DNA from: a virus
Taxonomy: Duplodnaviria > Caudoviricetes
Direction: 5' to 3' (one strand)
IMG/VR virus record: IMGVR_UViG_3300030372_001749
Coordinates: 1 to 59,518 of that record
Length of the DNA: 59,518 nt
In this document: positions 8,143 through 25,536 of the stretch, one piece after another
How the letters are laid out: each line of letters starts with the position of its first letter
How positions within the stretch are numbered: the first letter of the stretch is position 1
Notes under the pieces: generated by a model
Seen by the model: only the letters and a program-made list of their open reading frames with translations
Databases searched by the model: none
Told to the model about the DNA's origin: nothing
Made by a program: the position numbers and the translations under genes

Positions 8143-9710
8143 TCTTTTCTTGCGTGTGTTATAATTGCATTAGTAGTTAGGATAGTTGTAGCAACACTGA
8201 TTGCGTTTGTCAATGCCTGTGTCGTAACCTTCGCTGGGTCTACTACACCCATCTCAAACATATCGCCATACTCTCCTGTTACCACGTTATACCCTTCATT
8301 CTTTTTTAACTTCTTGTCATAGATACTAGCACTATCCAAACCAGCGTTCTTTAAAATCTGTGCTAGTGGGGCACGAAGCGTGTCACGCAAAATTTTATTT
8401 TTAGTACTATCGCCTTTATATTTCTTAGCTAACCTATCTAGTAATAACCCACCACCAGCAACAATACCCTCTTGCAGAGCTGAACGTACCGCACATACCG
8501 CATCATCTACCCTATCGAACTTTTCTTTCTGCTCAATATCAGAGGTAGCACCAACGTATATACAACCTATACCTCCTACTAAACTTGCAATGCGTTCATT
8601 GACAAATTCACGCTCCGCCTTGTTTGTTAATCTCTCCTGTTGCTCACGCAACTCCTCAACCCTCTTAGTAATCTCATCGGTAACCTGGTTATCTTTGATA
8701 ATGATTGTAGAGTCTTTACCTACGATAATCTTGTCTGCATATCCTAGGTCCTCCATACGGATTAGTGACAGGTCATCGCCCGTACTCTCCGAGAAGTATT
8801 TAGCCCCAACAGATAATGCAATATCCTGCATCAGCTCGTGAGAACGGTAACCAAAAGAAGGAACTAAGATGTTACAGAACTTTAAACCGTTTCGCTGAAC
8901 GTTAGCAGCAAGCGTGTTGATAACGTTCCCCGAACAATTCCCAATGATAAGTAACTTCTCGCCACCATTAATGATTGGCTTGAGCACATTCTCAATCTGC
9001 AGGATGTTAGTAATCTCGGTATCACATACCAATATCTTTACACCATCGAGTATACACTCATCCTTACGGTGGTCATTGATAAACATCGGTGAGGTATATC
9101 CCCTATCAACCTTTATCCCATTAGTAACCTCCGCATAGGTCTTGTCGGTTTGTGAACGCTCAACAGTAACAATACCATCATGACCAACCTTTCTATACGC
9201 ATCCGCTATAATCCCGCCAATCTCACTATCGTTATTGGAAGAGATAGTAGCAATATCCTCTAGCATATCATCCGTAACCTCAACAGACTCCTTAGCAATG
9301 TCTGCTAAAAGTTTATCTCCCTCCTTACGAATCTCTCGTACCACCTGTATCGTATTCTCGTTCTCACCAATGTGAGACTCTCCAGCTTTTACCAAAGCCT
9401 CGGTCAATACAATAGCGGTAGTAGTTCCATCACCCGCAGTGTTCGCTGTCTTCTCTGAAGCCTGCTTCATCATACGAACCGCTAAGTTCTCTACAGGGTC
9501 CATTAAGAAAACAGACTTAGCAACCGTTACACCATCCTTGGTAACAGTCAACCCTTGTGTATGTTCACCTGATTCAATTAACACCGTCTGGCCTTGAGGC
9601 CCTAGTGTGCTCTTTACAGCGTTGGAGATTTTTGAGATGCCTGATATTAACTTCTCCCTAGCATCGTCATCGAAAGATAGGTCTTTCGGAATGTACCCTT
9701 GTTCGTTCAT
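8139..9710 (-). CDS. groEL: Chaperonin GroEL (Cpn60)
   Basis: TLGPQG, VTKDGVTVAK, AGDGTTTA, GIVAGGG, GVVDPAKV. Start set at MNEQG, downstream of promoter 9735-9742. No GGM tail. Confidence 0.97.
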   Translation of the reverse strand: MNEQGYIPKDLSFDDDAREKLISGISKISNAVKSTLGPQGQTVLIESGEHTQGLTVTKDGVTVAKSVFLMDPVENLAVRMMKQASEKTANTAGDGTTTAIVLTEALVKAGESHIGENENTIQVVREIRKEGDKLLADIAKESVEVTDDMLEDIATISSNNDSEIGGIIADAYRKVGHDGIVTVERSQTDKTYAEVTNGIKVDRGYTSPMFINDHRKDECILDGVKILVCDTEITNILQIENVLKPIINGGEKLLIIGNCSGNVINTLAANVQRNGLKFCNILVPSFGYRSHELMQDIALSVGAKYFSESTGDDLSLIRMEDLGYADKIIVGKDSTIIIKDNQVTDEITKRVEELREQQERLTNKAEREFVNERIASLVGGIGCIYVGATSDIEQKEKFDRVDDAVCAVRSALQEGIVAGGGLLLDRLAKKYKGDSTKNKILRDTLRAPLAQILKNAGLDSASIYDKKLKKNEGYNVVTGEYGDMFEMGVVDPAKVTTQALTNAISVATTILTTNAIITHARKE

Positions 9711-9744
9711 CGATTTAATTAAATTTAATTTCTGCAAATATAAT

Positions 9745-9957
9745 AAAAATCTTTACATATATAAAATGATATTATGACAATTTTTAAAATCTCTATTTGT
9801 ATATATATATTTACTATTATATATATTATTTTTTTATTTATAAAATTAGTTTAAAATTAACATATCGACATAAATTAATATAACTATACTGAAAACTAAG
9901 AAGTTATGAAAAATGACTTCGACATAATTTCGACATTACTATGTCAACTTGTGTCAT
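9745..9957. other. AT-rich origin-like region A with TYRACAT iterons
   Basis: Non-coding, AT-rich core; TTAACATATCGACATAAA, TTCGACAT twice, inverted ATGTCAA. Confidence 0.5.
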
Positions 9958-9990
9958 AAAAAAAGGGTGGACCTAAGTCACACCCCTTTC
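9958..9990 (-). terminator. Intrinsic terminator
   Basis: GGGTG..GAC-TTAG-GTC-CACCC hairpin followed by T7 on the minus strand. Confidence 0.75.
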
Positions 9991-10011
9991 TTGTCGAACA
10001 AATGGAAACGT

Positions 10012-10206
10012 TTAAAATTCTAATTGTCTAAAATTCTTTTTGTTTTCTGCAAGCTCTATTGCCTCTGCAATCTGATTTATCTTTCTGTCGTTCTTAACAG
10101 CACGCTTAATGCGAGAAGCCTCAGCTATACCAGTTTCTCCATCAGGTCTCTTGTTCATCAACCTACCGTCCTTTACAAATAATCCTTCTACGTAATCGCT
10201 TATCAT
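10012..10206 (-). CDS. Hypothetical protein (GLFVKDGRLMN)
   Basis: Has its own promoter (10222-10229) and terminator. Confidence 0.7.
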   Translation of the reverse strand: MISDYVEGLFVKDGRLMNKRPDGETGIAEASRIKRAVKNDRKINQIAEAIELAENKKNFRQLEF

Positions 10207-10221
10207 GTCTTTTCTTTTTTA

Positions 10222-10229
10222 CAAAGATA
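10222..10229 (-). promoter_or_regulatory. Bacteroidota sigma-A -7 element TATCTTTG (representative minus-strand promoter)
   Basis: TAnnTTTG also at 1331, 6950, 7157, 9735, 38485, 47666, 47989, 48426, 51893 and 54404, each just upstream of a gene start. Confidence 0.75.
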
Positions 10230-10378
10230 TAAAATTTTTTCAGATATCTGGAAGTAAAGGGTTCTACGCCGCCATACGCAACCGACCCCCCATTTAAAAG
10301 TAGGGGGGGCTATGACTTTGTTTAGGCAATTCCCAAATTTTTTCTGCAACTTTTTACCTTTTTTCCTACAGCCCTTGT

Positions 10379-10480
10379 CCTAGCTAGGCTATAGCTGTTG
10401 TGCTACGTAGCTACCTAGCTTTGTCGCTGTTGTCCTAGCTGTAGCTCTAGCTATTTACCTAGTACTAGCTGTAGCTGTGC
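10379..10480. repeat. Short-repeat array (nine TAGCT in about 100 bp)
   Basis: Counted directly; in the non-coding strand-switch region. Confidence 0.85.
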
Positions 10481-10499
10481 GATTATTATCTACTATACA

Positions 10500-10515
10500 G
10501 TCTCGTTAACGAGAC
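10500..10515 (+). repeat. GTCTCG-N4-CGAGAC palindrome, copy 1
   Basis: GTCTCGTTAACGAGAC. Confidence 0.9.
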
Positions 10516-10683
10516 CTTCAAAACATTACGAGACGTAAAGAGGGAAGGCTATATGCCCCCAATGAACAAAAGAATAACAAACAAAAGACCAAATCTTAAA
10601 AAAAATTTCCCTTACTACCATTGGGATACAGAGCAAAATGTAAATTAATTTAAAAAACTGCATTGTAGAACGGATAATTATAC

Positions 10684-10691
10684 TATCTTTG
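10684..10691 (+). promoter_or_regulatory. First early promoter, -7 element TATCTTTG
   Basis: TAnnTTTG with an upstream TTG at about -33. Confidence 0.7.
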
Positions 10692-10695
10692 AACT

Positions 10696-11622
10696 ATGAA
10701 AGCACAAACAATGTACGAAAATATTGCTAACTCGCTGATAGTCAGTAAGTTAGGCCATAAGGCTTGTGTAACTAGCTGTTTATCAGCACAAAACGAAAAA
10801 AAGGCTGATATCAGCACAAATCAATTAATTATGAGTAATGTAACTGTTAACAAATCAGAAGGTTTATTTTTAAACGGTACAGTAGTAAAGAAAGCTATCA
10901 ATAAGGAGGCTGTTCTAGAACATTTGAATATGGCGCAAAAATGTGTAAATGAGAAATTTCGTCAAGAGGTTGAGGCATCAAATCTAATAGCTGATGCTTA
11001 TGCTTGGTTTACATCTAAGAAGTCAGAGGCACAGCGTACGAAATACGCTATCAAATGGACAAAAGAAGAGTTTGGTCAGAAGGCATTTGGCTTATCTAAA
11101 GCACAATTCTACAAGAAGGATGCACTAGGTAAGACAGCTTTAGAAGTTGTTGAAGGTTTTATTACTGCTGATATAACGGTAAGAATGAACGGTCTAAAAC
11201 ACAGTTTATCAATTGAGGCGTGTAACAAATTCACTAACCAATATGTGGTTAAGGATGTAACAAAAATGACTAAGAAGGAAGCAAAAAAATGTATTTCAGA
11301 TGCGATAGCGAAATACGTTGAAGATGCTAAAAACGGTAAGCTATCTAAGGCTAAGGCAAAAGGTAAGTCTGATGCTAAGGATAAGGCTAAAGGTAGTAAG
11401 AATCGTATTACTGTATCGATGTCTAAGTACGGTGGTGACAAAGGAATGTCGCTAAACATAGACAAAGACGGTAAGCTACAAGCGATGACGCCAAACGTAG
11501 ATAAGAAGATGGCGACAAAGCTGATTACTGACCTAGCGAAAGCGTTCAAGGATGCGGGTATCTTCGCTGATGGTAAAGTACCAAGTGAAGTGAAGGCTAT
11601 ACTAGAAACGGTTAAGCTATAG
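10696..11622 (+). CDS. First early protein, Lys/Ala-rich, possible DNA-binding (alternative start 10831)
   Basis: HTH-like TKEEFGQKAFGLSKAQFYK and a basic linker. ATG 10696 would be leaderless; ATG 10831 has a typical A-rich context. Confidence 0.75.
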   Translation: MKAQTMYENIANSLIVSKLGHKACVTSCLSAQNEKKADISTNQLIMSNVTVNKSEGLFLNGTVVKKAINKEAVLEHLNMAQKCVNEKFRQEVEASNLIADAYAWFTSKKSEAQRTKYAIKWTKEEFGQKAFGLSKAQFYKKDALGKTALEVVEGFITADITVRMNGLKHSLSIEACNKFTNQYVVKDVTKMTKKEAKKCISDAIAKYVEDAKNGKLSKAKAKGKSDAKDKAKGSKNRITVSMSKYGGDKGMSLNIDKDGKLQAMTPNVDKKMATKLITDLAKAFKDAGIFADGKVPSEVKAILETVKL

Positions 11623-11630
11623 GAAAAAAT

Positions 11631-11658
11631 GCGAGGGTCTCGTCAGCGAGACCTTCGC
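11631..11658 (+). repeat. Palindrome copy 2 with extended stem
   Basis: GCGAGG-GTCTCG TCAG CGAGAC-CTTCGC. Confidence 0.9.
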
Positions 11659-11659
11659 T

Positions 11660-11708
11660 CCTTACTAGGATGTGTATCCTAGCTGATGATTCCAAAAGGA
11701 TGAAAAGG
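11660..11708 (+). ncRNA. Hammerhead ribozyme, type III
   Basis: CCTTA^ CTAGGAT-GTGT-ATCCTAG CTGATGA T TCC-AAAA-GGA T GAAA AGG. Core CUGAUGA/GAAA and stems I-III present; predicted cut after A11664. Confidence 0.8.
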
Positions 11709-11733
11709 TAACTAAAAATTAAAATTTATTGAA

Positions 11734-11907
11734 ATGAAAAAATTAAATTGGGGAACGTGGTTGTGTATAATCACAGCTGTGTTAAGTATTATTGGAATGT
11801 GTATCTGCGATTGTGTAGATATCAATATGGAAGGGATATTTGCATTAACTACGCTGGCTTCAATCTTTGGAATTATAGCGTCTATGATGGAGGCTGAAGG
11901 ATATTAA
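11734..11907 (+). CDS. 57-aa two-TM membrane protein
   Basis: Read manually: MKKLNWGTWLCIITAVLSIIGMCICDCVD...FALTTLASIFGIIASMMEAEGY. Confidence 0.65.
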   Translation: MKKLNWGTWLCIITAVLSIIGMCICDCVDINMEGIFALTTLASIFGIIASMMEAEGY

Positions 11908-11919
11908 AATTATAAATCA

Positions 11920-11945
11920 GCAGGGTCTCGTCAGCGAGACCTTGC
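11920..11945 (+). repeat. Palindrome copy 3 with extended stem
   Basis: GCAGG-GTCTCG TCAG CGAGAC-CTTGC. Confidence 0.9.
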
Positions 11946-11959
11946 ATAAACCAAAACAA

Positions 11960-12196
11960 ATGAAAACAATTATTAAAACAGTAGTATGTTTAACGATAGC
12001 TTTCACTAGCTACGGACAAACAAAAAAAGACAGCGTGACAATTGATAGATTCCAAGTACAAGAAATCTTAAACACGATTGAGGATTTAATAGAATGGAAT
12101 AAAGAAGATGAGTTTAATGGCCAAGAACCTAGAACGAATGAAAACTATTGGTTAGGTAAAATGAGAGATGAATTAATTAATGAACTAAAAAAATAG
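11960..12196 (+). CDS. Exported small protein (signal peptide)
   Basis: MKTIIKTVVCLTIAFTSYG-Q resembles a Bacteroidota SPI signal with Gln at +1. Confidence 0.65.
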   Translation: MKTIIKTVVCLTIAFTSYGQTKKDSVTIDRFQVQEILNTIEDLIEWNKEDEFNGQEPRTNENYWLGKMRDELINELKK

Positions 12197-12198
12197 GT

Positions 12199-12345
12199 AT
12201 GAGAGAAGAAGAATATTACGACACATTACTTTTGTGTAGTGGCTTTACACAAGAACAAATAAATGATATGTCAGACGAGGACAAAGAAATGAATTTAGGA
12301 ATGTTATACAATGCTATTCATTGTGCGTTTTTTAAAACTAGATAA
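12199..12345 (+). CDS. 48-aa acidic hypothetical
   Basis: Read manually; fills the gap between ORFs. Confidence 0.45.
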   Translation: MREEEYYDTLLLCSGFTQEQINDMSDEDKEMNLGMLYNAIHCAFFKTR

Positions 12346-12346
12346 T

Positions 12347-12538
12347 ATGGAATTTAAACCTAATGAAATGTATTACTGTACAGTAAAGTACGGTGGTACG
12401 GGTGGAACGTATTCCACATACGAGAAAATTTTTAAGAGTGAGTCTCACTACCTTAATTGGTGTACGTTTATGATGCGTAACTACGGTGGAAAGGTATTGG
12501 AGATTAAACATCATTCAGAAATTTTAAAAAATAAATAG
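12347..12538 (+). CDS. Hypothetical early protein
   Basis: ORF track, start moved to MEFKP. Confidence 0.6.
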   Translation: MEFKPNEMYYCTVKYGGTGGTYSTYEKIFKSESHYLNWCTFMMRNYGGKVLEIKHHSEILKNK

Positions 12539-12545
12539 CAAACTA

Positions 12546-12577
12546 TTTGGATATGTGCAATAAATGTATAATATTTG
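12546..12577 (+). promoter_or_regulatory. Early promoter (TTTG-N20-AATATTTG)
   Basis: Similar to promoters at 13341-13363 and 15156-15186; one mismatch to TAnnTTTG. Confidence 0.6.
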
Positions 12578-12602
12578 TACAGATTGATTTAGTGCTGAGG
12601 TA

Positions 12603-12674
12603 GACCATTGAACATTAGGTTGTTATGTAGAGCGATACTACCAATGGTCACGATAAGGGTCTCGTTGACGAGAC
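12603..12674 (+). ncRNA. tRNA-like three-way junction plus palindrome copy 4 (element 1)
   Basis: P1 GACCATTG/CAATGGTC; P2 AACA-TTAGGT-TGTT; P3 GTAG-AGCGATA-CTAC; then GTCTCGTTGACGAGAC. Confidence 0.65.
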
Positions 12675-12700
12675 AAGTATTAATAAATAAACAAACCAAT

Positions 12701-12874
12701 ATGAAAACAATTTTAATTACAATCAGTTTAGTAATTGCATACGGAAGTTATGCAAACGATAATGTCAAAGAAGTTGATGTTATAGAGTATAGAAAAAAGA
12801 AAAGAAAAAAGAAAAAGAAAAAAGGATGTTACAATTCTAGAAGAAGATGGGATAAAAAATATTATATGAAATAA
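12701..12874 (+). CDS. Signal-peptide protein with poly-Lys tail
   Basis: MKTILITISLVIAYGSYA...RKKKRKKKKKKG. Confidence 0.6.
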   Translation: MKTILITISLVIAYGSYANDNVKEVDVIEYRKKKRKKKKKKGCYNSRRRWDKKYYMK

Positions 12875-12886
12875 AAATAAAATAAA

Positions 12887-13309
12887 ATGAGAACAAATAA
12901 TAAAAAAGTACGTGAGAACGTAAGGAAGCATATCCTGGAGAGTATGCACGATTATAATGAAGAAAGTTTTAAAAGTTTTGATGATGCTAGAGAATATCTA
13001 GTAAAAGAATTTATAAGGGTTTACAATCATCAATACAATAAAAATAGATGGCCAAACAATCAAGATAGGTTTCAAAATTATCTAATGGGAATAGTGTTTA
13101 ATTTTAAGTTTACTGATTATGATATTGAAAAGTTTCTAAATGGATTAGGTATAAATCCAAAAGAAAAGAAATATACAGGCGAACAAATGTGGCGAATGTA
13201 TGCCTATCTAATTTGGCGAGAAATACAAGAAACCTATGATGAAATAATTTATATAGAACACAAATCTAAAATGAGGATGGTATCTAGTTATGTGGAATCA
13301 GAATTTTAA
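12887..13309 (+). CDS. Hypothetical early protein
   Basis: 140-aa ORF with A-rich start context. Confidence 0.75.
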   Translation: MRTNNKKVRENVRKHILESMHDYNEESFKSFDDAREYLVKEFIRVYNHQYNKNRWPNNQDRFQNYLMGIVFNFKFTDYDIEKFLNGLGINPKEKKYTGEQMWRMYAYLIWREIQETYDEIIYIEHKSKMRMVSSYVESEF

Positions 13310-13340
13310 ACTAAAAATAATTGAATGAGAACTTTTTAAT

Positions 13341-13363
13341 GTATAATTAATGTATTATATTTG
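13341..13363 (+). promoter_or_regulatory. Early promoter (-7 TATATTTG)
   Basis: GTATAATTAATGTATTATATTTG, near-identical to 15164-15186. Confidence 0.65.
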
Positions 13364-13382
13364 TAGAAAGTTAGTAATAATA

Positions 13383-13454
13383 CTACCATTGAACATAGGA
13401 TGTGAAGCAGAGCAAAACTGACGATGGTAGCGATAAAAGTCTAGTCGACTAGAC
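13383..13454 (+). ncRNA. tRNA-like three-way junction plus palindrome copy 5 (element 2)
   Basis: P1 CTACCATTG/CGATGGTAG; P2 ACA-TAGGA-TGT; P3 CAG-AGCAAAA-CTG; then GTCTAG TCGA CTAGAC. Confidence 0.65.
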
Positions 13455-13478
13455 AAGTATTAATAAAATAAAATAGAT

Positions 13479-13631
13479 ATGAAAAAAGAAATAGAACAGT
13501 TAATTAAATTGATAATTAATCCTATACACCTACAAGATAGTGATAGTGAGGATTATATATCTGATGCAGAAATGGTAGAGATAGTATTAAAAAAATTAAA
13601 AGAGATTGTTAATTATGATGAACACAAATGA
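13479..13631 (+). CDS. 50-aa hypothetical
   Basis: Read manually (MKKEIEQLIKLIINP...). Confidence 0.55.
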   Translation: MKKEIEQLIKLIINPIHLQDSDSEDYISDAEMVEIVLKKLKEIVNYDEHK

Positions 13632-13848
13632 AAAAATACATAAGGCATTCAATCCAAAGAAGAGGATTGTAGAAGAGAATGAGTATAAACCAAAGCTAAG
13701 GATTCAAAGTTCGGTATATCCATCTGATGAAGAAAGGCAATGGTATCCTACAATAACTGCAGTAAACAATGCAGATAGACGTAGAACATTCGACCATTTT
13801 GATGAGGAGTTACTAAATAGAATCTTAGATATTAAACAAAATAAATAA
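13615..13848 (+). CDS. Hypothetical early protein
   Basis: ORF track, ATG start. Confidence 0.6.
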   Translation: MMNTNEKIHKAFNPKKRIVEENEYKPKLRIQSSVYPSDEERQWYPTITAVNNADRRRTFDHFDEELLNRILDIKQNK

Positions 13849-13849
13849 T

Positions 13850-13880
13850 GTCTCGTTGACGAGACCTAATATAAATAAAA
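13850..13880 (+). repeat. Palindrome copy 6 within a 31-bp repeat identical to 16586-16616
   Basis: GTCTCGTTGACGAGACCTAATATAAATAAAA. Confidence 0.9.
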
Positions 13881-13891
13881 AAATAGAACAA

Positions 13892-14164
13892 ATGAATAAA
13901 TTAGAAAAAGTGTTAGAACAAATTGATGAACAAGTAATGAGCATATGTAGTGAACATATGAAAGGAGATTGTATAATAGATGATACACTAGAACATCATA
14001 TACTAGGAATCAAAAGAGGTATTATTGATACATATGGTGTACCATATCATTTAGAACCACATTGGAATGGTAGTCATACATTTAAGATTGTATTTGATGA
14101 TGACAATTTCAATGCAGATATGGAGGCACAAGATTATGATGTGTTTGGAGAAAATAAAATATAA
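13892..14164 (+). CDS. Hypothetical early protein
   Basis: Start moved to the TAGAACAAATG context. Confidence 0.65.
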   Translation: MNKLEKVLEQIDEQVMSICSEHMKGDCIIDDTLEHHILGIKRGIIDTYGVPYHLEPHWNGSHTFKIVFDDDNFNADMEAQDYDVFGENKI

Positions 14165-14181
14165 ACTAAAAAATAGAACAG

Positions 14182-14382
14182 ATGGAAAATAACATTGGTA
14201 AAGTAGTAAGGGTAGTAGAACAACCATCAATTATTGGAGAGATAATCAGAATGGATGGACATAAATTTGTCATTAGAGAATATGATATAATAGATGATGA
14301 AGGAGACAATACACTTATCTTTCATAGTGATGAAGTAGAATTTATTAACGAACTAAAAACAAATAGAACAGATGAAAAGTAA
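14182..14382 (+). CDS. Small SH3-like hypothetical
   Basis: IGKVVRVV...IGEII beta pattern. Confidence 0.6.
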   Translation: MENNIGKVVRVVEQPSIIGEIIRMDGHKFVIREYDIIDDEGDNTLIFHSDEVEFINELKTNRTDEK

Positions 14383-14659
14383 ATGGACAGTAGATGATTA
14401 TAAAAAATCATATGATGATAGAATGGATAAGGCATTTAGAGATATGAAGAAGGAGGGATTAGAGGATTATGATAGCCATCAATTTATTGTAGACGAAGGA
14501 GATTTTACTTCAGAAGAAATAGTAGGTTATTACTATGAAACGTATCGAGATAAAGCCAAAGAAATGTGGGAATCCAATACTAAAGATAGGGATAAAAGAT
14601 TATCTGAAGCATATAGAGTTCGTGCTAAACAAGTAGATATGATATTTAATAAAATATAA
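14372..14659 (+). CDS. Hypothetical early protein
   Basis: ORF track. Confidence 0.65.
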   Translation: MKSKWTVDDYKKSYDDRMDKAFRDMKKEGLEDYDSHQFIVDEGDFTSEEIVGYYYETYRDKAKEMWESNTKDRDKRLSEAYRVRAKQVDMIFNKI

Positions 14660-14676
14660 ACTAAAAAATAGAACAG

Positions 14677-14859
14677 ATGGGAGCAATTAAAGAAAGACGA
14701 CTGGAGTTACTAGATGATTTAGTAACGATGATAATTAAAGAAAAGTATGGCGACAGTATGTATAAGAACTGTGGAATACACCTAAAAGATAAGGTGTTAG
14801 ATACATACGAGAGGGTGTATGATGAGGTGGAAGAAATATTTATAAATTATATAGACTAA
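14677..14859 (+). CDS. Hypothetical early protein
   Basis: ORF track. Confidence 0.6.
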   Translation: MGAIKERRLELLDDLVTMIIKEKYGDSMYKNCGIHLKDKVLDTYERVYDEVEEIFINYID

Positions 14860-14862
14860 ATA

Positions 14863-14880
14863 GGTCTCGTTGACGAGACC
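14863..14880 (+). repeat. Palindrome copy 7
   Basis: GGTCTCGTTGACGAGACC. Confidence 0.9.
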
Positions 14881-14906
14881 AAGTATTAACCAAAACAAAA
14901 ACAATT

Positions 14907-15119
14907 ATGAGAGAAGAATTTAATAAGTTATTTGATGTGCTAGTTGACCATCAACTAGCAACAAAAGAAGAAATAGTTTTAGTGTGTTGTATCAATGGAC
15001 ACAACCTAGAATCTTTAGAAAGTATTCTATATGCTAGAACATTATATCGTTCACTAGCACAATATATGATGTGTGAAGCTGACGAATGTTTATATGATAA
15101 AGAACAAGAAAAAATATGA
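14907..15119 (+). CDS. Hypothetical early protein
   Basis: ATKEEIVLVCCING...LESILYART. Confidence 0.65.
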   Translation: MREEFNKLFDVLVDHQLATKEEIVLVCCINGHNLESLESILYARTLYRSLAQYMMCEADECLYDKEQEKI

Positions 15120-15155
15120 TTGATGAATATATTTTTAAAATAATTACACAACAGC

Positions 15156-15186
15156 TTGTATATGTATAATTAATGTGTTATATTTG
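15156..15186 (+). promoter_or_regulatory. Early promoter TTG-N20-TATATTTG
   Basis: Fits the Bacteroidota -33/-7 consensus. Confidence 0.7.
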
Positions 15187-15215
15187 TACATAATATTAAC
15201 AATAAAAAAACAATT

Positions 15216-15653
15216 ATGAAGAATGTAGAATTTAAAATGGATGTAAGCATCCCGTTAGACTCAATTGAAGAGGTATTAATTACTGCACTAGAAGGTGGTA
15301 TAAATTATTGGGGATGTCTTGATGGGGAGGATATAAGTGTATTTCAAAAATGGTTTGATGAGAAGATAGAAGCAGGAGAACTCAAGCGAGATGATAGTGT
15401 ACATTATGGATGGATGGATGCAATGTTTCAAGGGTGTCCACATAAGATAGCAGTATATGATATAGAGGATGAGGAGGATGAAGAACCTTTAGGTTATCTA
15501 TCTATGGAAAACATAGGTAAAGGATTACAGTTAGCTATGCGAGATTACCCTAAGACATATGCACAACACTTTCCCGAGTATGATAGTGGAGATGTTATAT
15601 CGGCAGATGTATTGTTTCAGTTAATGGTAATGGGAGACGTAGTATACGGATAA
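15216..15653 (+). CDS. Acidic hypothetical protein (ALEGGINYW...ADVLFQLMVMGDVVYG)
   Basis: ORF track. Confidence 0.75.
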   Translation: MKNVEFKMDVSIPLDSIEEVLITALEGGINYWGCLDGEDISVFQKWFDEKIEAGELKRDDSVHYGWMDAMFQGCPHKIAVYDIEDEEDEEPLGYLSMENIGKGLQLAMRDYPKTYAQHFPEYDSGDVISADVLFQLMVMGDVVYG

Positions 15654-15663
15654 ATATAAATCG

Positions 15664-15689
15664 GTGGGGTCTCGTCAGCGAGACTCCAC
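15664..15689 (+). repeat. Palindrome copy 8 with extended stem
   Basis: GTGGG-GTCTCG TCAG CGAGAC-TCCAC. Confidence 0.9.
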
Positions 15690-15704
15690 ATAAACTAAAA
15701 TAAA

Positions 15705-15938
15705 ATGGAAAAAAGAACAATGTTTAAAGTAATGTGGGTAAATGAGTATGGAAGTCCGGAGATGAATCAAGATGGGTTTCATACAGAAGATGAAGCTGAG
15801 GAGTATTGTAAAGATTTGTCGGAGTCTTTTAAAGACCAAGAATACTACGTAACCGAGTATACTCACAGACCTACAAGAAGATATGATGCAGGAATATCGG
15901 GAGGAGTAGATGGATGGGAAGATATGTTTAATTATTAA
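15705..15938 (+). CDS. Hypothetical early protein
   Basis: ORF track. Confidence 0.65.
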   Translation: MEKRTMFKVMWVNEYGSPEMNQDGFHTEDEAEEYCKDLSESFKDQEYYVTEYTHRPTRRYDAGISGGVDGWEDMFNY

Positions 15939-15949
15939 AATAAAATAAA

Positions 15950-16240
15950 ATGGAAGGAGAAATTAAAATGACTGTTATGACAGACAGAATTAAAACAAAA
16001 GAGTTTTTAATAAAGTGGATTGGAAATACATTGTGTGAAAATAATATACCACCCTACTATGCGTCAGCAAAATTAGAGGAGGTGTTTGGTATAAAAATAC
16101 ACACACATATATCAAACTTCATTGAGTTTGCTAAAGATAATAACCTTGATGATATAGATATTTCAACTACCCTAGCCCACGATGTTAGTGGAGCATTAAA
16201 CAATGATAAACTAATGATACCAAGAGTTGGAGGATATTAA
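15950..16240 (+). CDS. Hypothetical early protein
   Basis: ORF track. Confidence 0.65.
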   Translation: MEGEIKMTVMTDRIKTKEFLIKWIGNTLCENNIPPYYASAKLEEVFGIKIHTHISNFIEFAKDNNLDDIDISTTLAHDVSGALNNDKLMIPRVGGY

Positions 16241-16259
16241 TTAAATAAAATAAAATAAA

Positions 16260-16583
16260 ATGAAAGAGAAAGTATTAGAACACCAAGGAATTACAATCTT
16301 AACCTACTGGAACTCAGAAAATTTTGACATAGAGGTAGGTGAGGAGACATCAGTAGATGGATATAGTATATACTATATGCGATATAAAGATGAGCCACTC
16401 AATATACAAGAACATATATTCTATGATGAGTATGGTTTAACTGAGGCATTGCAAGAAAAAATACAAGATGAGACAGACATAACATTTATGGTATGGGATG
16501 ACGAATTGCTAGAGGATATAGATTGGGATGAGATAGCCTCAAACCTAGGTATAGATGATGATGAACCGTTCTTAAAGATGTAA
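16260..16583 (+). CDS. Highly acidic protein (possible DNA mimic)
   Basis: D/E-rich, 107 aa; mimic role is inference only. Confidence 0.65.
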   Translation: MKEKVLEHQGITILTYWNSENFDIEVGEETSVDGYSIYYMRYKDEPLNIQEHIFYDEYGLTEALQEKIQDETDITFMVWDDELLEDIDWDEIASNLGIDDDEPFLKM

Positions 16584-16585
16584 TA

Positions 16586-16616
16586 GTCTCGTTGACGAGA
16601 CCTAATATAAATAAAA
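16586..16616 (+). repeat. Palindrome copy 9
   Basis: Identical to 13850-13880. Confidence 0.9.
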
Positions 16617-16618
16617 TT

Positions 16619-16861
16619 ATGAAAACAGACACAGACATAACACAGGTAACAAGATTTATGTACTTCGCATACAACTTTCCAATAGGTTGGATGGAAAAGG
16701 TATGGGCAGATGATGAACATTTACTTAACCACTTTCAAGATAAGTGGGCAGGAGGTACAGCAAAATGTGGTACATATAGATTCTTTGATTTCTATATGAA
16801 CCTAGATGCACAAAATAAAGATAAGTTAGTACATTGGATTGACAATAATTATAAACCATAA
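16619..16861 (+). CDS. Hypothetical early protein
   Basis: Start moved to MKTDT. Confidence 0.65.
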   Translation: MKTDTDITQVTRFMYFAYNFPIGWMEKVWADDEHLLNHFQDKWAGGTAKCGTYRFFDFYMNLDAQNKDKLVHWIDNNYKP

Positions 16862-16872
16862 AATAAATAAAT

Positions 16873-17100
16873 ATGACAGTAGCAGAAAGTAGAGACAGAT
16901 TAAGAGATAGATATATCGATTGGTATATGACAATTCATAACCTACCAACCAATGAAGACGCAACGTACACTTGGTGGGAAATGGAGAAAGATTGTTATGA
17001 GTGGTGCGATAAAGAAAGAACATATGTACCAATGAGTGAAACCAAAACTCTAATGATTATGAGACAGTGGTTTAGAAGACAGAAAAATTTATATAAATAA
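16873..17100 (+). CDS. Hypothetical early protein
   Basis: ORF track. Confidence 0.6.
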   Translation: MTVAESRDRLRDRYIDWYMTIHNLPTNEDATYTWWEMEKDCYEWCDKERTYVPMSETKTLMIMRQWFRRQKNLYK

Positions 17101-17108
17101 TAAAACAA

Positions 17109-17297
17109 ATGGAAGATAAAAATGAACGTAATGGTGTAGTATATCCTTTTGAGGAAGGAAATGACTACTGGACTATAGAAGATGGTGAGGTAATATGGTC
17201 TTGTTGGGATGATGGAAGTGAGGAAATGCACGATAAAAATCCAAACAAAAAATATTTTAGGACAAAAGAATCTGCTATTAATTATTTAAAACAATAG
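17109..17297 (+). CDS. Hypothetical early protein
   Basis: YPFEEGNDYWTI...YFRTKESA. Confidence 0.65.
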   Translation: MEDKNERNGVVYPFEEGNDYWTIEDGEVIWSCWDDGSEEMHDKNPNKKYFRTKESAINYLKQ

Positions 17298-17302
17298 AAC
17301 AA

Positions 17303-17470
17303 ATGGAAACAACAACGATTAAAATAACTAGACAGGAGTTAATTATTATTCAAGACCTAGTATCAAAGGAAAGGTTTAAGTTGATGGCTTTAGATGTCAA
17401 CGATGAGTTAGATATAGTTAAAGATTTAAGTTTAAGATTATATAAAAAAGTTAAACAAAAGTTTGAATAG
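17303..17470 (+). CDS. 55-aa hypothetical (METTTIKITRQELIII...)
   Basis: Read manually; TAGAACAAATG start context. Confidence 0.55.
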   Translation: METTTIKITRQELIIIQDLVSKERFKLMALDVNDELDIVKDLSLRLYKKVKQKFE

Positions 17471-17492
17471 AAATAATAAAGTATTATTTTTG
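17462..17492 (+). promoter_or_regulatory. Promoter of replication operon, TTTG-N19-TATTTTTG
   Basis: Consensus match. Confidence 0.65.
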
Positions 17493-17517
17493 ATAAACAT
17501 AAAAACAAATAGAACAA

Positions 17518-17811
17518 ATGAAGAAAGAAGCATTCAATAATTATGCTGAGGCAATAGCACAGCAGTTTCATTTAAGCTTAGATAGTTTATTTGAAAAGAC
17601 AAAGAAGCGTGAGATAACAGACGCAAGACAACTGTTATACTATCTGTGTATGGAGAGACCAATTAGGATAAGTTATATCCAAAGATTCTTAGAGGATAAC
17701 GGGTACTCGGTGGCTCACAGTACAATCATTCATGGCTACAAGAAAGCTAAGGAGTTGATTGATAGCGACCAGGATTTTAAAGATATAGTCAAGAAGATTC
17801 AAGATGTATAG
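17518..17811 (+). CDS. DnaA C-terminal (domain IV)-like HTH protein
   Basis: KTKKREITDARQLLYYL...HSTIIHGYKK. Confidence 0.75.
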   Translation: MKKEAFNNYAEAIAQQFHLSLDSLFEKTKKREITDARQLLYYLCMERPIRISYIQRFLEDNGYSVAHSTIIHGYKKAKELIDSDQDFKDIVKKIQDV

Positions 17812-18220
17812 TAAGGAGGATATATTTAATCAAATCAAATCCGATGCCTCTGCAATAAAAAGTCCAATGCCTCATGGTGAGGGTTATATAAACCTAGGAA
17901 TAAAGGTGCAGAAGTTTGGGGATACCATAGAGATTATAAACTTAGCTAGAAGTGGTACATACTACGTACCTTGTACTACGTATGAAGAGACATACTTTTT
18001 TAATTATGGGTACAAAGAGGGTGCAGTGAGGTTATGTATAGCTAACACCAAGCGAAAGCTAAAAACGGTAGAAGATAAGATAAGGGGGGAGGTGACAACC
18101 CGTAGGAACAACAAGCATATTATGTCACTGAAAGCAAGACGAGAAGGACTGCTTAATAAATATGCAGAACGTAAATTACAATTAAATAAAATCACAAATG
18201 ACAAAGAAAGAAATAATTAA
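17804..18220 (+). CDS. Hypothetical protein
   Basis: ORF track; overlaps neighbours. Confidence 0.65.
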   Translation: MYSKEDIFNQIKSDASAIKSPMPHGEGYINLGIKVQKFGDTIEIINLARSGTYYVPCTTYEETYFFNYGYKEGAVRLCIANTKRKLKTVEDKIRGEVTTRRNNKHIMSLKARREGLLNKYAERKLQLNKITNDKERNN

Positions 18221-18491
18221 ATTTCTAGAAGACAATTCAAAGGAATTATTTTTAGAGACCTTAAGGAATAAGGTTGACTCAAAAGCACACAAAGATAATT
18301 TAATAAGGTGGGCAACTGCTCATAAGATATTAAAGAAAGTCAATCCCGATTTTGATGAAAACATAGAGTGGGCAGAACTAGAATATAAGCACACAAAAAA
18401 AGTTAAAGAGTTTTTTAAAACTAAAGAGTCTCGACCTTATTTTTGGAAAGGATTATTTGAAGGAAAATTACCTACACATATAATTAAATAA
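18198..18491 (+). CDS. Hypothetical protein
   Basis: ORF track. Confidence 0.6.
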   Translation: MTKKEIIKFLEDNSKELFLETLRNKVDSKAHKDNLIRWATAHKILKKVNPDFDENIEWAELEYKHTKKVKEFFKTKESRPYFWKGLFEGKLPTHIIK

Positions 18492-18509
18492 TAAATAAAA
18501 TAAAATCAA

Positions 18510-19112
18510 ATGGAAAAGAAAAATGTATTTAAAGAACTATCCTCGATAGATGTATCATCGAAGATAGAAAAGAAAGGTCAACTAGATTACATCAGTTGGG
18601 CAAACAGTTGGGCGATGTTAAAGAATAAATATCCTAATGCCCAACGTATGGTGTATGAGTCAGAACATACCGGACTAAACTACCATACCGATGGTAACAC
18701 TGCGTATGTAAAGGTTGGTATCAAGGTGGGAGATATAGAACATATAGACTACCTACCCGTTATGAACTTCCGTAACCAATCTATCCCCGTAGATAAGATT
18801 ACAAGTATGGATGTGAACACTGCAATACAACGTAGTACTACCAAGGCTATAGCTATGCATGGCTTAGGATTAAGTCTATGGATTGGTGAGGACACTAAGG
18901 TATCTACCCCATCTGCACCAGTAAGTAAGACACCTATACCATCTAAAGATGCAGTAATAGAACTGAAGATTGGGGATAATAATTGGGAGAAGGTACTTAA
19001 GTATATAGCATCTAATAAAGATATTGGTCTATCTAAAATCGTTAAGAACCTAGAGACTAAGTATAAGATAAAGCCTTTAGTAAAGAAAGAACTCTCTAAA
19101 CATATCAAGTAA
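18510..19112 (+). CDS. Sak3/DUF1071-like single-strand annealing protein
   Basis: IEKKGQLDYISWANSW...YLPVMNFRN...IQRSTTKAIAMHGLGLSLW. Confidence 0.85.
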   Translation: MEKKNVFKELSSIDVSSKIEKKGQLDYISWANSWAMLKNKYPNAQRMVYESEHTGLNYHTDGNTAYVKVGIKVGDIEHIDYLPVMNFRNQSIPVDKITSMDVNTAIQRSTTKAIAMHGLGLSLWIGEDTKVSTPSAPVSKTPIPSKDAVIELKIGDNNWEKVLKYIASNKDIGLSKIVKNLETKYKIKPLVKKELSKHIK

Positions 19113-19846
19113 TGGAAGCATTAAAGTTATTGAAGGATGACTCCCATTATTATGGAGAGTTAGGGAGACAGTATTTATCTAACTCAGATATTATTACACT
19201 ACTGAATGACCCTAAGAATTTCAGAGAAGAGAAACTAATGAGCAAGGCAATGCTCATTGGTAGATACTTCCATACTGCTATGCTTGAACCACACAAGATT
19301 GAGAGTGAAGAGTTTGTAAGTATAGATGCATCGAGTCGTAACACTAAACTTTATAAGGAAGGATTACAGTATTACAATAGAGACTTAATGATGCTTAACA
19401 AAGAGAAGCAGGATATAGACAAGGCAATACAGACGATGCAGTCTAACCTAGAGTTTCATGATGCTATCTATGAGGATGGTAATGAGTTTGAGGTACCGGC
19501 AATAAAAGAGTTGTTTGGTATAGCGTGGAAAGGTAAGGCAGATATTATCACTAAGGATATAATCATAGACCTAAAGACCACAAGTAATATAAAAGACTTT
19601 AGGTACTCAGCTAAGAAGTATAACTACGATAGCCAAGCGTGGCTATACAATCAGTTGTTTGGCAAGTCATTAGTATTCTATGCTATAGATAAGACAACGT
19701 TTGAGTTAGGAATTTTTGAACCGAGTGAAACATTTTTAGAGTATGGAAAAAATAAAGTTGAAAGAGCACTGGAGATATACAATAAGTTTTATGGTGACAG
19801 TGCTACGGAGAATGTCGAGAACTATATCATTAAAGAAATTCTTTAA
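19112..19846 (+). CDS. RecE/ExoVIII-like PD-(D/E)XK exonuclease
   Basis: LSNSDI, GRYFHTAMLEP, KGKADI...IIDLKTT, YDSQAWLY; adjacent to the annealase. Confidence 0.85.
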   Translation: MEALKLLKDDSHYYGELGRQYLSNSDIITLLNDPKNFREEKLMSKAMLIGRYFHTAMLEPHKIESEEFVSIDASSRNTKLYKEGLQYYNRDLMMLNKEKQDIDKAIQTMQSNLEFHDAIYEDGNEFEVPAIKELFGIAWKGKADIITKDIIIDLKTTSNIKDFRYSAKKYNYDSQAWLYNQLFGKSLVFYAIDKTTFELGIFEPSETFLEYGKNKVERALEIYNKFYGDSATENVENYIIKEIL

Positions 19847-19865
19847 GAGACAAAGAGAAGGGGTT

Positions 19866-19967
19866 ATGTTTTTGGAAATTCCAACACAAATCACAACCCA
19901 AGCTGAACGTGATAGATTCATGGAGGCAACAATGGAAAAGTTGGAAAGAATAATTTATAAAAAATAA
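19866..19967 (+). CDS. Possible 33-aa protein
   Basis: 3' part of ORF-track 19743..19967. Confidence 0.35.
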   Translation: MFLEIPTQITTQAERDRFMEATMEKLERIIYKK

Positions 19968-19975
19968 TTTTTATT

Positions 19976-20236
19976 ATGGCAGAAGAAAAAATCTATGTCG
20001 GAAATGGTGTGTCAAAATTTGACGGACAGATGGTAAGTATGAGTGTATGTCTTAGTGACCTACCAAAGGAACACATGTTTGAGTACAACGGTAAGCGTTA
20101 CATCAAACTAAATGTGTCTGCAAAGAGAGACGGTGCAGATGATTATGGTAAGACTCACTATGTTACTGTCGATACTTTTAAACCGGAACCAAAGAAAGAA
20201 GAGCCTAAACAACAAGAGGCTGACCTACCTTTCTAA
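19976..20236 (+). CDS. Putative ssDNA-binding protein
   Basis: Beta-rich with acidic ...EADLPF tail; follows the recombination genes. Confidence 0.65.
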   Translation: MAEEKIYVGNGVSKFDGQMVSMSVCLSDLPKEHMFEYNGKRYIKLNVSAKRDGADDYGKTHYVTVDTFKPEPKKEEPKQQEADLPF

Positions 20237-20250
20237 TTATGTAAACACCG

Positions 20251-20285
20251 AGAGAAAGGGTCTCGTTGACGAGACCTTTTCTTTT
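20251..20285 (+). terminator. Palindrome copy 10 built into a terminator-like hairpin
   Basis: AGAGAAAGG-GTCTCG TTGA CGAGAC-CTTTTCTTTT. Confidence 0.7.
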
Positions 20286-20289
20286 GCTT

Positions 20290-20452
20290 ACCTTATGTTG
20301 ATATGTCGATTTCAAATGATTCTTATATAGCTTATATATTTTTCTTATTTATATATATATTTTTATTTATTTATTTATTTATTTATTAACATATTAACAT
20401 AAAGAATATAGAAGTACTATAAATACTAGAAAGTAAGTAACATAAAATCAAC
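20290..20452. other. AT-rich origin-like region B with TYRACAT iterons
   Basis: ATGTTGATATGTCGA, then (TTTA)n, then TTAACATATTAACATAAA; upstream of the primase. Confidence 0.55.
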
Positions 20453-20803
20453 ATGAAACATAACAGTGATTTTAAATATGACCTTGAGGTTGGTAGAGTA
20501 GCAGAAAGAATACTAGAAAAATTGTTAGAGAATAAAACAATTGAAGTAAAAAGAGACCTACAGGCTATTAATACAGGTAACATATATGTGGAGTATGAGA
20601 GTAGAGATAAACCAAGTGGCTTAGCCCATACTAAGGCAGACTATTACTGCTACTTTATTACAGACGGTAGAATGTTTTTAATAGAGACAGAAGAACTAAA
20701 AGAACTTTGCAGAAAATATATCGGAACAGACAGAGATAGGAGAGGTGGGGATTCAGATACAAGTAAAGGAATATTATTACCCTTAACAGACTTAATTAAA
20801 TAA
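20453..20803 (+). CDS. PD-(D/E)XK nuclease-like protein
   Basis: IEVKRD...TGNIYVEYESRDKPSG...TKADYY. Confidence 0.7.
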   Translation: MKHNSDFKYDLEVGRVAERILEKLLENKTIEVKRDLQAINTGNIYVEYESRDKPSGLAHTKADYYCYFITDGRMFLIETEELKELCRKYIGTDRDRRGGDSDTSKGILLPLTDLIK

Positions 20804-20804
20804 A

Positions 20805-25432: not shown

Positions 25433-25475
25433 TTACTTTTAGCTATTACTTTCTGTAAGTGATTCATAATTGGTT

Positions 25476-25528: not shown

Positions 25529-25536
25529 AAAGAACA

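Follow-up and report, generated by a model that had tools for sequence, protein, structure and literature searches.

A 16-bp palindrome repeated through the early region of a marine Bacteroidota podovirus, and its candidate partner, the first early protein

Introduction

Ten copies of a 16-bp palindrome, GTCTCG-N4-CGAGAC, punctuate the early region of a 59.5-kb podovirus of marine Bacteroidota, and we propose that the palindrome is the double-stranded DNA operator of a homodimeric, helix-turn-helix (HTH)-like protein encoded by the first early gene of the phage (P0001, 10696-11622; hereafter the partner gene and partner protein). The DNA analysed, termed the window, is the whole of IMG/VR virus record IMGVR_UViG_3300030372_001749 (59,518 nt), rated complete by CheckV. 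The proposal draws on sequence comparison and structure prediction, and our confidence in it is evenly balanced; we are just as divided over whether the sites together form a KorB- or stoperator-like operator array in which some copies are reused as mRNA 3'-end or terminator hairpins. We infer that the protein binds at the site, that DNA rather than RNA is its target, and that the effect is repressive.

Operator arrays served by one phage or plasmid regulator are already known, as are phage hammerhead ribozymes. New here are an unannotated protein family with a predicted site, found in at least 76 marine viral contigs, and operator-like palindromes that are regularly coupled with hammerheads. 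In searches of main texts neither the protein family nor the site turned up in print: none of four 16-mers was found, and a search for Flavobacterium phage stem-loops or for a hammerhead joined to a palindrome returned nothing describing this arrangement; the supplementary figures of one paper on phage hammerhead contexts (PMC3088659) could bear on novelty.

Results

Ten palindromic sites in the early region

Scanning the window for GTCTCGNNNNCGAGAC gave nine exact matches (10500, 11637, 11925, 12659, 13850, 14864, 15669, 16586 and 20260); not one of 100 dinucleotide-preserving shuffles contained any match. With up to two mismatches allowed, one extra site appeared at 13439 (GTCTAGTCGACTAGAC; 0.31 expected). 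This copy reads GTCTAG-TCGA-CTAGAC, the fifth pair being altered on both sides so that the palindrome is still perfect, and the compensatory change noted there in the initial annotation is confirmed. All ten sites are confined to 10500-20275 and are intergenic under our gene model, so the copies, positions and placement first listed are borne out. Longer TTG- or ATG-started frames that overlap four of the sites (12608.., 13856.., 16592.. and 20112..) were read as not being true starts or genes. The wider pattern GTSTC-N6-GASAC, run over the whole 59.5 kb, returned the same nine sites and no others, with none in the late arm, where none had been noticed before.

The N4 loops are TTGA (five copies), TCAG (three), TTAA (one) and TCGA (one), and the asymmetric centres all have the same orientation (8/8). 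Seven sites begin 1-23 nt past a stop codon and seven lie 17-27 nt before an ATG (Table 1), much as first described (just after a stop, or 18-27 nt before a start); the next ATG is 81 nt past 11637 and 180 nt past 10500, and no gene follows closely behind 20260. At four copies (11637, 11925, 15669 and 20260) the stem is extended, and because of G-U pairs the plus-strand RNA is predicted to be 3.6-9.0 kcal/mol stabler than the minus-strand RNA, which upholds the four strand-specific extensions reported earlier.

Judged by a U-tract directly after a GC-rich hairpin, only site 10 (20260; 1/10) resembles an intrinsic terminator, in line with the earlier remark that most copies lack such a tract. 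A terminator consensus scan called four sites terminator-like on the minus strand only, because of their A-rich 5' flanks. On that strand 13850-13865, 14863-14880 and 13439-13454 resemble hairpin-plus-T-run terminators for antisense transcription, and in the related genome G002 AAAA stands immediately 5' of five sites; such sites might halt antisense read-through yet pass sense transcription.

The sites occur together with one early protein family

Among the early open reading frames (ORFs) of the window, 10696-11622 alone has relatives exclusively at motif-bearing loci. A family profile search detected the gene in all five motif-bearing genomes that include the early start (window, MW202828.1, G001, G002 and G004) and in none of ten motif-less relatives at least 99% complete, with a positive control that worked; there was no further match in the other comparison loci. 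Two motif-bearing genomes are without the family gene, G003 (56% complete, ending within the early region) and G005 (66% complete).

The reverse test used 76 IMG/VR loci fetched by the partner protein family alone. Of the 76, 73 had two or more sites matching GT(G/C)T(C/A)-N6-..AC, the outer arms being symmetric (385 sites in 0.80 Mb, the commonest being GTGTCTTCAAAGACAC), as compared with none of 80 loci from the same phage group fetched by primase (the best 80 primase relatives, 67-83% identical), which held four single sites in 1.28 Mb. An upstream site lies less than 400 nt from the family gene in 58/72 loci (median 215 nt), its centre facing either way (14 vs 12, no bias), and a site lies within 60 nt past the family-gene stop in 47/72; MW202828.1 and G004 have an additional site inside the family gene.

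The scan of related genomes suggested in the initial annotation recovers symmetric sites in seven genomes, the window among them, as well as in the family loci: under the pattern GTSTMG-N4-CKASAC, 47/47 sites in the seven genomes were symmetric. MW202828.1, an uncultured record whose primase is 63% identical, carries 14 copies of GTGTCGTTAACGACAC, the same palindrome with its third pair flipped; five of the 14 are inside annotated genes, primase included. The same variant occurs in G003 and G004, again partly within genes, and MW202828.1 and G003 share orthologous sites in their primase and Sak genes. G001 has the GTCTCG form at four sites. In G002, with early proteins 66-98% identical to those of the window, nine of ten sites are GTCTAG..CTAGAC and one is GTCTCG; comparing orthologous sites, 14864 and 15669 differ by a compensated pair, and 13439 and 13850 agree. 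The central bases vary by lineage: the window has TTGA/TCAG, the main clade TCAA, MW202828.1 TTAA and G002 CCGA/TCGA.

Several of the primase relatives carry other repeated intergenic elements at equivalent places. L070 (also L079, L098 and L075-L077) is without the partner gene and the GTSTC site, and holds the palindrome CGTTTAAACG 20 times in 22 kb, some copies being in genes (primase included) and some having variable, G-U-paired complementary arms; by analogy this looks like a similar system with another partner. Structure-only intergenic hairpins occupy the equivalent position, 15-25 nt before start codons, in L107 (1352-2735: TAAACCA plus GGGAGCG-GAAA-CGCTCCC, four copies), L086 (1620-2602: GCTCACTAT-GAAA-ATAGTGGGC, two copies) and L032 (1629-5886: stems that vary, flanked by CGAAAC and GTCAGTAT).

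A predicted symmetric dimer of the partner protein

Sequence relatives of the 308-aa protein are few: 37 among 1.84 billion cluster representatives, and two close relatives only in a word-indexed homologue search; protein and profile searches of PDB sequences gave no match. A 223-aa relative (L112) was modelled from a 70-sequence alignment (pLDDT 88). In this model a long helix (23-59) and a helical core are followed by a disordered linker and a small C-terminal beta-beta-beta-alpha domain. Helices 76-84 and 88-98, which bear the conserved motif W-T-x-E-x-F-x-x-K-x-F-G-x-x-K-S-x-F-Y-K, look like an HTH.

A homodimer was predicted as symmetric, joined through the long helix and the C-terminal domain, with a score of 0.81 against 0.00 for the best control; the level reached is one attained by 20/30 proteins solved as pairs of the same chain and by 1/23 solved as single chains, a benchmark that holds roughly here since our own alignment was used. 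Dimer runs agreed in at least 85% of contacts, with a partner pLDDT of at least 81. No ParBc/Srx N-terminal (CTP-binding) domain was matched in Pfam, and the model has the long dimerising N-terminal helix in its place. In the ESM Atlas the protein falls among unnamed viral clusters, the nearest named families being DUF6192 and DUF3102 (0.91), which are mere leads.

Variants of the putative recognition helix were set beside site variants. The sequence QKS(F/Y)FYK accompanies GTGTCT and GTGTCC, and divergent helices accompany GTCTCG, GTCTAG and GTGTCG (few independent cases); a simple code linking helix residues to site variants is suggestive at most, there being too few independent lineages. 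A RAYT/IS200-like transposase, considered because the gene is flanked by palindromes, was rejected by eye: the protein is helical and no HUH-type motif was seen.

The site core is conserved as sequence

Among distinct cores, 317 are perfect and 32 are one-off (11 G-U, 7 A-C and 14 other). The ten core bases are thus conserved as sequence, with no G-U bias, which we read as the mark of double-stranded DNA operators of a dimer; a distance of 10 bp, or one helical turn, separates the centres of the arms. The loop differs between lineages, which leaves no constant RNA loop that a conserved protein could recognise. Within ORFs of at least 100 aa lie 83/385 sites (22%), and at these intragenic sites, as at site 1 (upstream of the -7 box of the partner gene), a role in RNA is unlikely from position. 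Of the alternatives in the initial annotation, the one that best suits the invariant core of the 16-mer is an operator for a dimeric repressor, given the co-occurrence, the predicted dimer and the sequence-conserved arms.

Hammerhead ribozymes stand beside the sites

In relatives, type III hammerheads lie immediately 3' of extended sites (seven matches to RF00008, E 8e-8 to 2e-6, scoring 34-49 bits against a gathering score of 48.5). A pattern scan found 113 in 57/76 family loci, one more in G004, and none in the 80 primase loci. Covariance model R1, built from 63 of the relatives' hammerheads, gave 151 matches in 64/76 family loci, all on the plus strand, a count that is partly circular, and two matches in the 80 primase loci. 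The primase relatives L054 (2352-2400) and L103 (2229-2291), which are without the partner gene, have one hammerhead each (41-49 bits by the lineage model R1); hammerheads are therefore not strictly tied to the palindrome system.

The window retains a single homologue, which starts one base past the site 2 hairpin and matches R1 over its full length (53 bits, E 7.5e-12). CUGAUGA, GAAA and a UUA cleavage triplet (of the NUH type) are present, stem I is 7 bp long and stems II and III are short. The predicted cut falls after UCCUUA (11664), and the homologue departs from the consensus in a U-U pair at 10.1-11.1, instead of the usual G-C, and in the shortness of stem III. RF00008 did not report it at E up to 10 (121-nt stretch) or E up to 1 (11.5 kb).

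DNA operator or RNA hairpin

A number of observations weigh against the operator reading. Pfam and PHROG hold no family for P0001, and Pfam likewise gave none for 40 alignment members at E up to 1. The HTH reading rests on the motif and on weak structural neighbours: VIA-align ranked KorB 8qa8_A best (Z 5.1, rmsd 4.0, 87 aligned), with 1r71_A (Z 4.6), SopB 3mkw_B (Z 4.2) and 3mky_P (Z 4.1), VirB 3vwb_A (Z 4.0) and P1 ParB 1zx4_A (Z 3.8) also found, all of them under Z 8 and so below the tool's trust level for a shared fold. These matches overlie the same part of the model, and the SopB, VirB and P1 ParB structures were solved on DNA; a ParB-type DNA-binding domain is a consistent lead, not proof. 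Foldseek searches of PDB with the two models both came back empty at E up to 0.001; P1 ParB and Noc head the list for a first, poorer model (E 0.07-2.4), and chemokines, aligned to the small C-terminal domain, make up the list for the second. The co-occurrence of gene and site could be plain linkage within an early module exchanged as a block, and the family loci are phylogenetically non-independent. Repression, as the direction of regulation, is purely inferred.

The remaining objections point to RNA. Stem extensions of at least 4 bp that use G-U on the family-gene strand were found at 85/369 distinct sites, as compared with 16 having the mirror-image A-C, so that about a quarter of the sites have extensions forming on the transcribed strand only. 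At downstream, transcribed sites of the family loci the centre is TTCAAA 117 times and TTTGAA 20 times. Of 114 pattern-found hammerheads, 77 have a site no more than 40 nt to their 5' side. An element acting on translation or on the mRNA could equally explain the 17-27 nt spacing before starts at 7/10 sites, and binding of an RNA stem is compatible with a symmetric dimer.

These observations raise the question of whether the sites act as RNA hairpins only, marking or protecting processed 3' ends, insulating the A-rich leaders that are without a Shine-Dalgarno sequence, or serving as protein-bound RNA; in one variant the 10696 protein would act on RNA to regulate its stability, its cleavage by the ribozyme or the translation of the following cistron, and the DNA palindrome would simply be the gene for the hairpin. 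Besides the strand-only extensions (4/10 in the window) and the centre bias, such a role would account for the hammerheads directly 3' of sites in relatives and at 11659-11709, the terminator-like copy at 20260, the constant distance to start codons (in relatives the mode is 14-28 nt), and the unrelated hairpins at the same position in other lineages, e.g., L107; it also agrees with the proposal that phage hammerheads cut transcripts (Perreault et al. 2011, PMC3088659). Yet a hairpin conserved for structure only would not hold both arms invariant across unrelated early genes, and it would tolerate G-U pairs, which are rare among the cores. The loop, the usual handle for RNA-binding proteins, is what varies; 262/369 distinct sites have zero stem extension; the intragenic sites would be left over; site 1 lies upstream of the promoter box, where no orientation bias is seen across loci; and the partner is a predicted symmetric dimer with an HTH-like core. 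We consider an RNA-only role unlikely, although less so than the other alternatives set out below. The RNA hairpin for processing or stabilisation suggested in the initial annotation is accordingly supported for a subset only (the G-U extensions, 20260 and the hammerhead directly 3' of 11637), so that operator and hairpin both appear to hold, at different levels; antitermination found no support.

Promoter boxes near the sites

The -7 promoter box of Bacteroidota has the consensus TAnnTTTG. By pattern match such a box (TATCTTTG) ends 4 nt before the partner-gene ATG, which implies a leaderless or near-leaderless mRNA. A 59-nt unit, D4, is present three times within the early block; two copies end in TATATTTG and one in AATATTTG, followed by TAC or TAG. 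From its sequence D4 looks like a host-type (-7 box) promoter, and the block is therefore probably more than one single transcript. Sites 4 and 5 lie within a 95-nt leader repeat, which includes about 45 conserved nt upstream of them and was reported by neither hammerhead model nor Rfam; its second copy has an orthologue in G002. An exact TAnnTTTG box or D4 repeat was found near these two sites alone, about 80 nt upstream, and none adjoins or follows the other eight. A sigma-70 consensus scan gave as many promoter-like sites as shuffles did (58 vs 58.7), that consensus being unsuited to this host group.

Could the sites themselves be promoter elements, either N4-like hairpin promoters for a virion polymerase or targets through which the 10696 protein activates middle transcription, each one starting a short-leader mRNA for the downstream cassette? 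Seven of ten sites do head a gene cassette at 17-27 nt before its start codon, and the apparently leaderless partner gene makes short leaders plausible. The virion module encodes a protein of 3116 aa, about the size known for virion RNA polymerases. But neither giant protein matched a polymerase in Pfam, in PHROG functions or among PDB sequences, and the 3116-aa one offers just a loose D-x-D-x-D string; downstream of the sites there is no conserved box of the -7 type; and with the site centre 25-35 nt before the ATG, the geometry of a class II activator would put the transcription start inside the gene. Moreover, sites 4 and 5 are about 80 nt downstream of clear host-type promoters, i.e., in leaders, and neither the intragenic sites nor the 3'-end site at 20260 would fit. 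A promoter role is improbable.

Exchange of genes at and away from the sites

Alignment of the window with G002 showed the partner-gene module to be inverted and diverged, with homology resuming 18 nt past site 11925 (7967 in G002). A 476-nt insertion in the window (12203-12678) ends 5 nt past site 12659, and G002 has a 195-nt insert immediately 3' of site 16586. Variant strains were represented by contigs from four sequencing runs, aligned at 85% likeness, which are weak evidence and carry no information on RNA starts, ends or strand; likewise, a contig from an RNA library over 11988-12701 is a contig only and gives no evidence on transcription or processing, and stretches that lack RNA cover are equally uninformative. 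In a contig from run X13, 160 letters replace 16616-16633, just 3' of site 9; elsewhere one similarity starts at 14862, and a deletion (12523-13434) ends 4 nt before site 13439. Events at site-free junctions were also found, comprising gene-precise deletions (12197-12344 and 14353-14666) and a recurrent junction at 13339 inside the promoter repeat. By hand count, about 9-10 of about 22 block edges are within 45 nt of a site, and sites stand at about a quarter of gene junctions, a modest excess. From these alignments the sites would thus be among the places of exchange, not its only places.

It is most improbable that the sites are primarily recombination cassettes through which early genes are shuffled by homologous or site-specific exchange, in the manner of the promoter-stem-loop units of T4-type phages (PeSL). 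The idea is helped by the block edges at or near 11925, 12659 and 16586, by the weaker contig events, and by the description of PeSLs as exchange points between unrelated sequences (PMC4122927). It is hindered by the breakpoints at site-free junctions, by the shortness of a 16-bp identity for homologous exchange, and by leaving the partner protein, the intragenic sites and the strict dyad symmetry unexplained. The initial annotation had offered recombination cassettes as an alternative and had suggested looking for gene gain or loss breakpoints at the motif; several such breakpoints do fall at or beside sites, which lends weak support to exchange as a side effect, and others fall where there is no site.

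Genome setting and other features

The named phages nearest to the window are those of Flavobacterium, Nonlabens, Polaribacter and Cellulophaga, together with MW202828.1; megablast of 10000-26000 against 50,697 phage records gave no near-identical record. The phage looks lytic. No integrase, lysogeny gene or ParA/IncC partner was seen among the window ORFs scanned. Early-gene leaders are A-rich and without a Shine-Dalgarno sequence. A tRNA search found none, and Rfam returned just two sub-threshold chance matches in the early region. Coordinates are collected in Table 1.

Genes for GroES (Cpn10, 7605-7862) and GroEL (Cpn60, 8139-9737), both on the minus strand, adjoin the divergent early control region, and in relatives a palindrome site is kept inside a gene of this GroES/GroEL arm (e.g., L133 593, L162 1082 and L196 579). 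Just upstream of site 1, at about 10380-10495, are short degenerate repeats (CTAGCT / GTAGCT / CTGTAGCT), of which TRF reported only a small piece (10402-10420); relatives have lineage-specific repeats at the equivalent place (CTACAGC in L154, GCCCGTG in L196, CCTGCCTCCG in L133). These could represent an origin, a packaging site or the array of another protein. AT-rich stretches at 9794-9960 and 20346-20411 bracket the small-gene block and have common repeats (TATTTATTTA... and TTAACATAT(C/T)(G/A)ACATAAA), and TCGACAT recurs several times in the former. Promoters, origins or targets of the DnaA-C-like protein could lie in these stretches.

Table 1. Positions of the palindromic sites and of neighbouring features in the window. 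Hairpin values are predicted folding energies of the plus-strand and minus-strand RNA, in kcal/mol.
Feature	Position	Strand	Description	Hairpin (+ / -)
Minus-strand arm	1-10 kb	-	GroEL, GroES and amidase genes	
Site 1	10500..10515	.	perfect 16-bp palindrome GTCTCGTTAACGAGAC; 180 nt upstream of the partner gene and also upstream of its host-type -7 box	
Box TATCTTTG	10684..10691	+	pattern match to TAnnTTTG; 4 nt before partner-gene ATG	
Plus-strand block	10.7-26.5 kb	+	many tiny genes first; then Sak-type annealing protein, exonuclease, primase-helicase, SNF2 helicase, DnaA-C-like protein	
Partner gene P0001	10696..11622	+	308 aa; first early gene; flanked by sites 1 and 2	
Site 2	11631..11658 (core 11637-11652)	+	12-bp extended hairpin needing plus-strand G-U pairs; core 14 nt past partner-gene stop	-22.4 / -18.8
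Type III hammerhead homologue	11659..11709	+	directly 3' of site 2 hairpin; sole copy in window	
Site 3	11920..11945 (core 11925-11940)	+	11-bp extended hairpin with G-U pairs; ATG 19 nt downstream	-20.0 / -15.8
Putative host-type promoter repeat D4	12523..12581, 13309-13367, 15132-15190	+	59-nt unit, three copies, 63-75% identical	
Leader repeat	12616-12710, 13396-13490		95 nt, 72% identical; holds sites 4 and 5	
Site 4	12659..12674	.	in 5' leader; ATG at 12701, 26 nt downstream; host-type promoter repeat about 80 nt upstream	
Site 5	13439..13454	.	variant GTCTAG-TCGA-CTAGAC in second copy of leader repeat; ATG 24 nt downstream; host-type promoter about 80 nt upstream	
Site 6	13850..13865	.	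1 nt past stop codon; ATG 26 nt downstream	
Site 7	14864..14879	.	4 nt past stop codon; ATG 27 nt downstream	
Site 8	15664..15689 (core 15669-15684)	+	11-bp extended hairpin with one G-U pair; ATG 20 nt downstream	-19.6 / -15.1
Site 9	16586..16601	.	2 nt past stop codon; ATG 17 nt downstream	
Site 10	20249..20286 (core 20260-20275)	+	17-bp hairpin, then T-run; end of small-gene block	-24.6 / -15.6
DnaA-C-like protein gene	24974-25432			
Virion block		-	terminase, portal, two giant proteins	
Giant virion-module ORF	26563-35913	-	3116 aa; no Pfam, PHROG or PDB sequence match	
Second giant virion-module ORF	40382-45760	-	1792 aa; sole match PHROG 'virion structural protein'	

Discussion

The operator model that we favour would work as follows. 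Host RNA polymerase would initiate at the host-type promoter before the partner gene and at the internal promoters. The partner protein, as it accumulates, would fill site 1, which precedes the promoter of its gene, site 2, just past the end of that gene, and those that separate the cassettes, each subunit of the dimer reading one GTCTC arm. Occupied sites would dampen or block transcription of the early block, as roadblocks or as a silencing array, so that the protein would feed back on its own gene and shut down or partition transcription of the small-gene block. A GC-rich palindrome that is transcribed is also a hairpin, and therefore a second, RNA-level use of the sites would be available: self-cleavage at the hammerhead of copy 2 would leave the partner mRNA with a stable 3' hairpin, and copy 10 would have been turned into a terminator.

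KorB of plasmid RK2, a member of the ParB family, acts at 12 palindromic OB operators and gives global, partly long-range repression. The resemblance lies in one dimeric HTH protein (here predicted), about a dozen short perfect palindromes over a gene block, varying distances between site and promoter, sites at the regulator's own gene, and a helical core whose fold weakly resembles that of the KorB DNA-binding domain. The phage protein differs in that Pfam detected no ParB/Srx domain and the predicted dimer is made by the long N-terminal helix and C-terminal beta domain; no ParA/IncC was seen among the ORFs scanned, the setting is a lytic-looking phage and not a plasmid, and here the sites would have a second use, as RNA hairpins next to hammerheads.

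The stoperators of cluster A mycobacteriophages (L5 gp71 type) are likewise present in many copies, in short intergenic spaces, and are served by one phage protein; the proposal is that they halt RNA polymerase both at initiation and during elongation, and their orientation follows the direction of transcription (PMC9283540), as it does here (8/8 in the window and the downstream bias in relatives). They are, however, asymmetric 13-mers read by a monomer with HTH and Stoperator domains, whereas our sites were always symmetric in the seven genomes and the protein is a predicted dimer; and their protein is the immunity repressor of temperate phages (PMC9283540), whereas ours is the product of a first early gene in a phage where no integrase or lysogeny gene was seen. 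This separation of L5-type repressors from the partner protein is drawn from their descriptions.

The PeSLs of T4-type phages are small conserved intergenic stem-loop units between variable small early genes and coincide with indel or replacement boundaries, as some of our sites do. They are composites of a terminator and an early promoter, without a dedicated binding protein (PMC4122927); here 8/10 sites have no adjoining promoter box, the stem is invariant and dyad-symmetric, and a partner protein co-occurs.

Perreault et al. (2011) described hammerheads flanking phage and prophage genes and proposed that they cut long transcripts into gene-length mRNAs (PMC3088659). Our relatives agree with this in having several type III hammerheads between the genes of one polycistronic region, all on the coding strand. 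They differ in that most hammerheads stand directly 3' of a conserved palindrome and the arrangement travels with one protein family, and in that the window retains one, deviant copy.

A bolder view, which we regard as decidedly unlikely, is that palindrome, dimer and hammerheads form one device for protein-gated ribozyme processing. The protein would recognise one and the same 16-mer in two forms, as DNA, where it would block polymerase between cassettes, and as a nascent hairpin abutting hammerhead stem III, and the first early protein would set, for each cassette, whether the early transcript extends, self-cleaves or is stabilised. If true, this would mean protein-gated processing in marine Bacteroidota phages of a widespread group.

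How phages of marine Flavobacteriia and Bacteroidota regulate their genes is almost unstudied, and their hosts have unusual promoters and translation that is not led by a Shine-Dalgarno sequence. The palindromes offer a testable regulon, consisting of an unannotated family, a predicted 16-bp site and a map of sites for each genome. If binding is true, the family would gain a function together with a recognition-code set (GTGTCT, GTGTCC, GTGTCG, GTCTCG and GTCTAG with matching proteins), and geneticists working on Bacteroidota would obtain a compact orthogonal repressor/operator pair. That type III hammerheads so regularly accompany the site makes these phages a natural system for asking what phage hammerheads are for.

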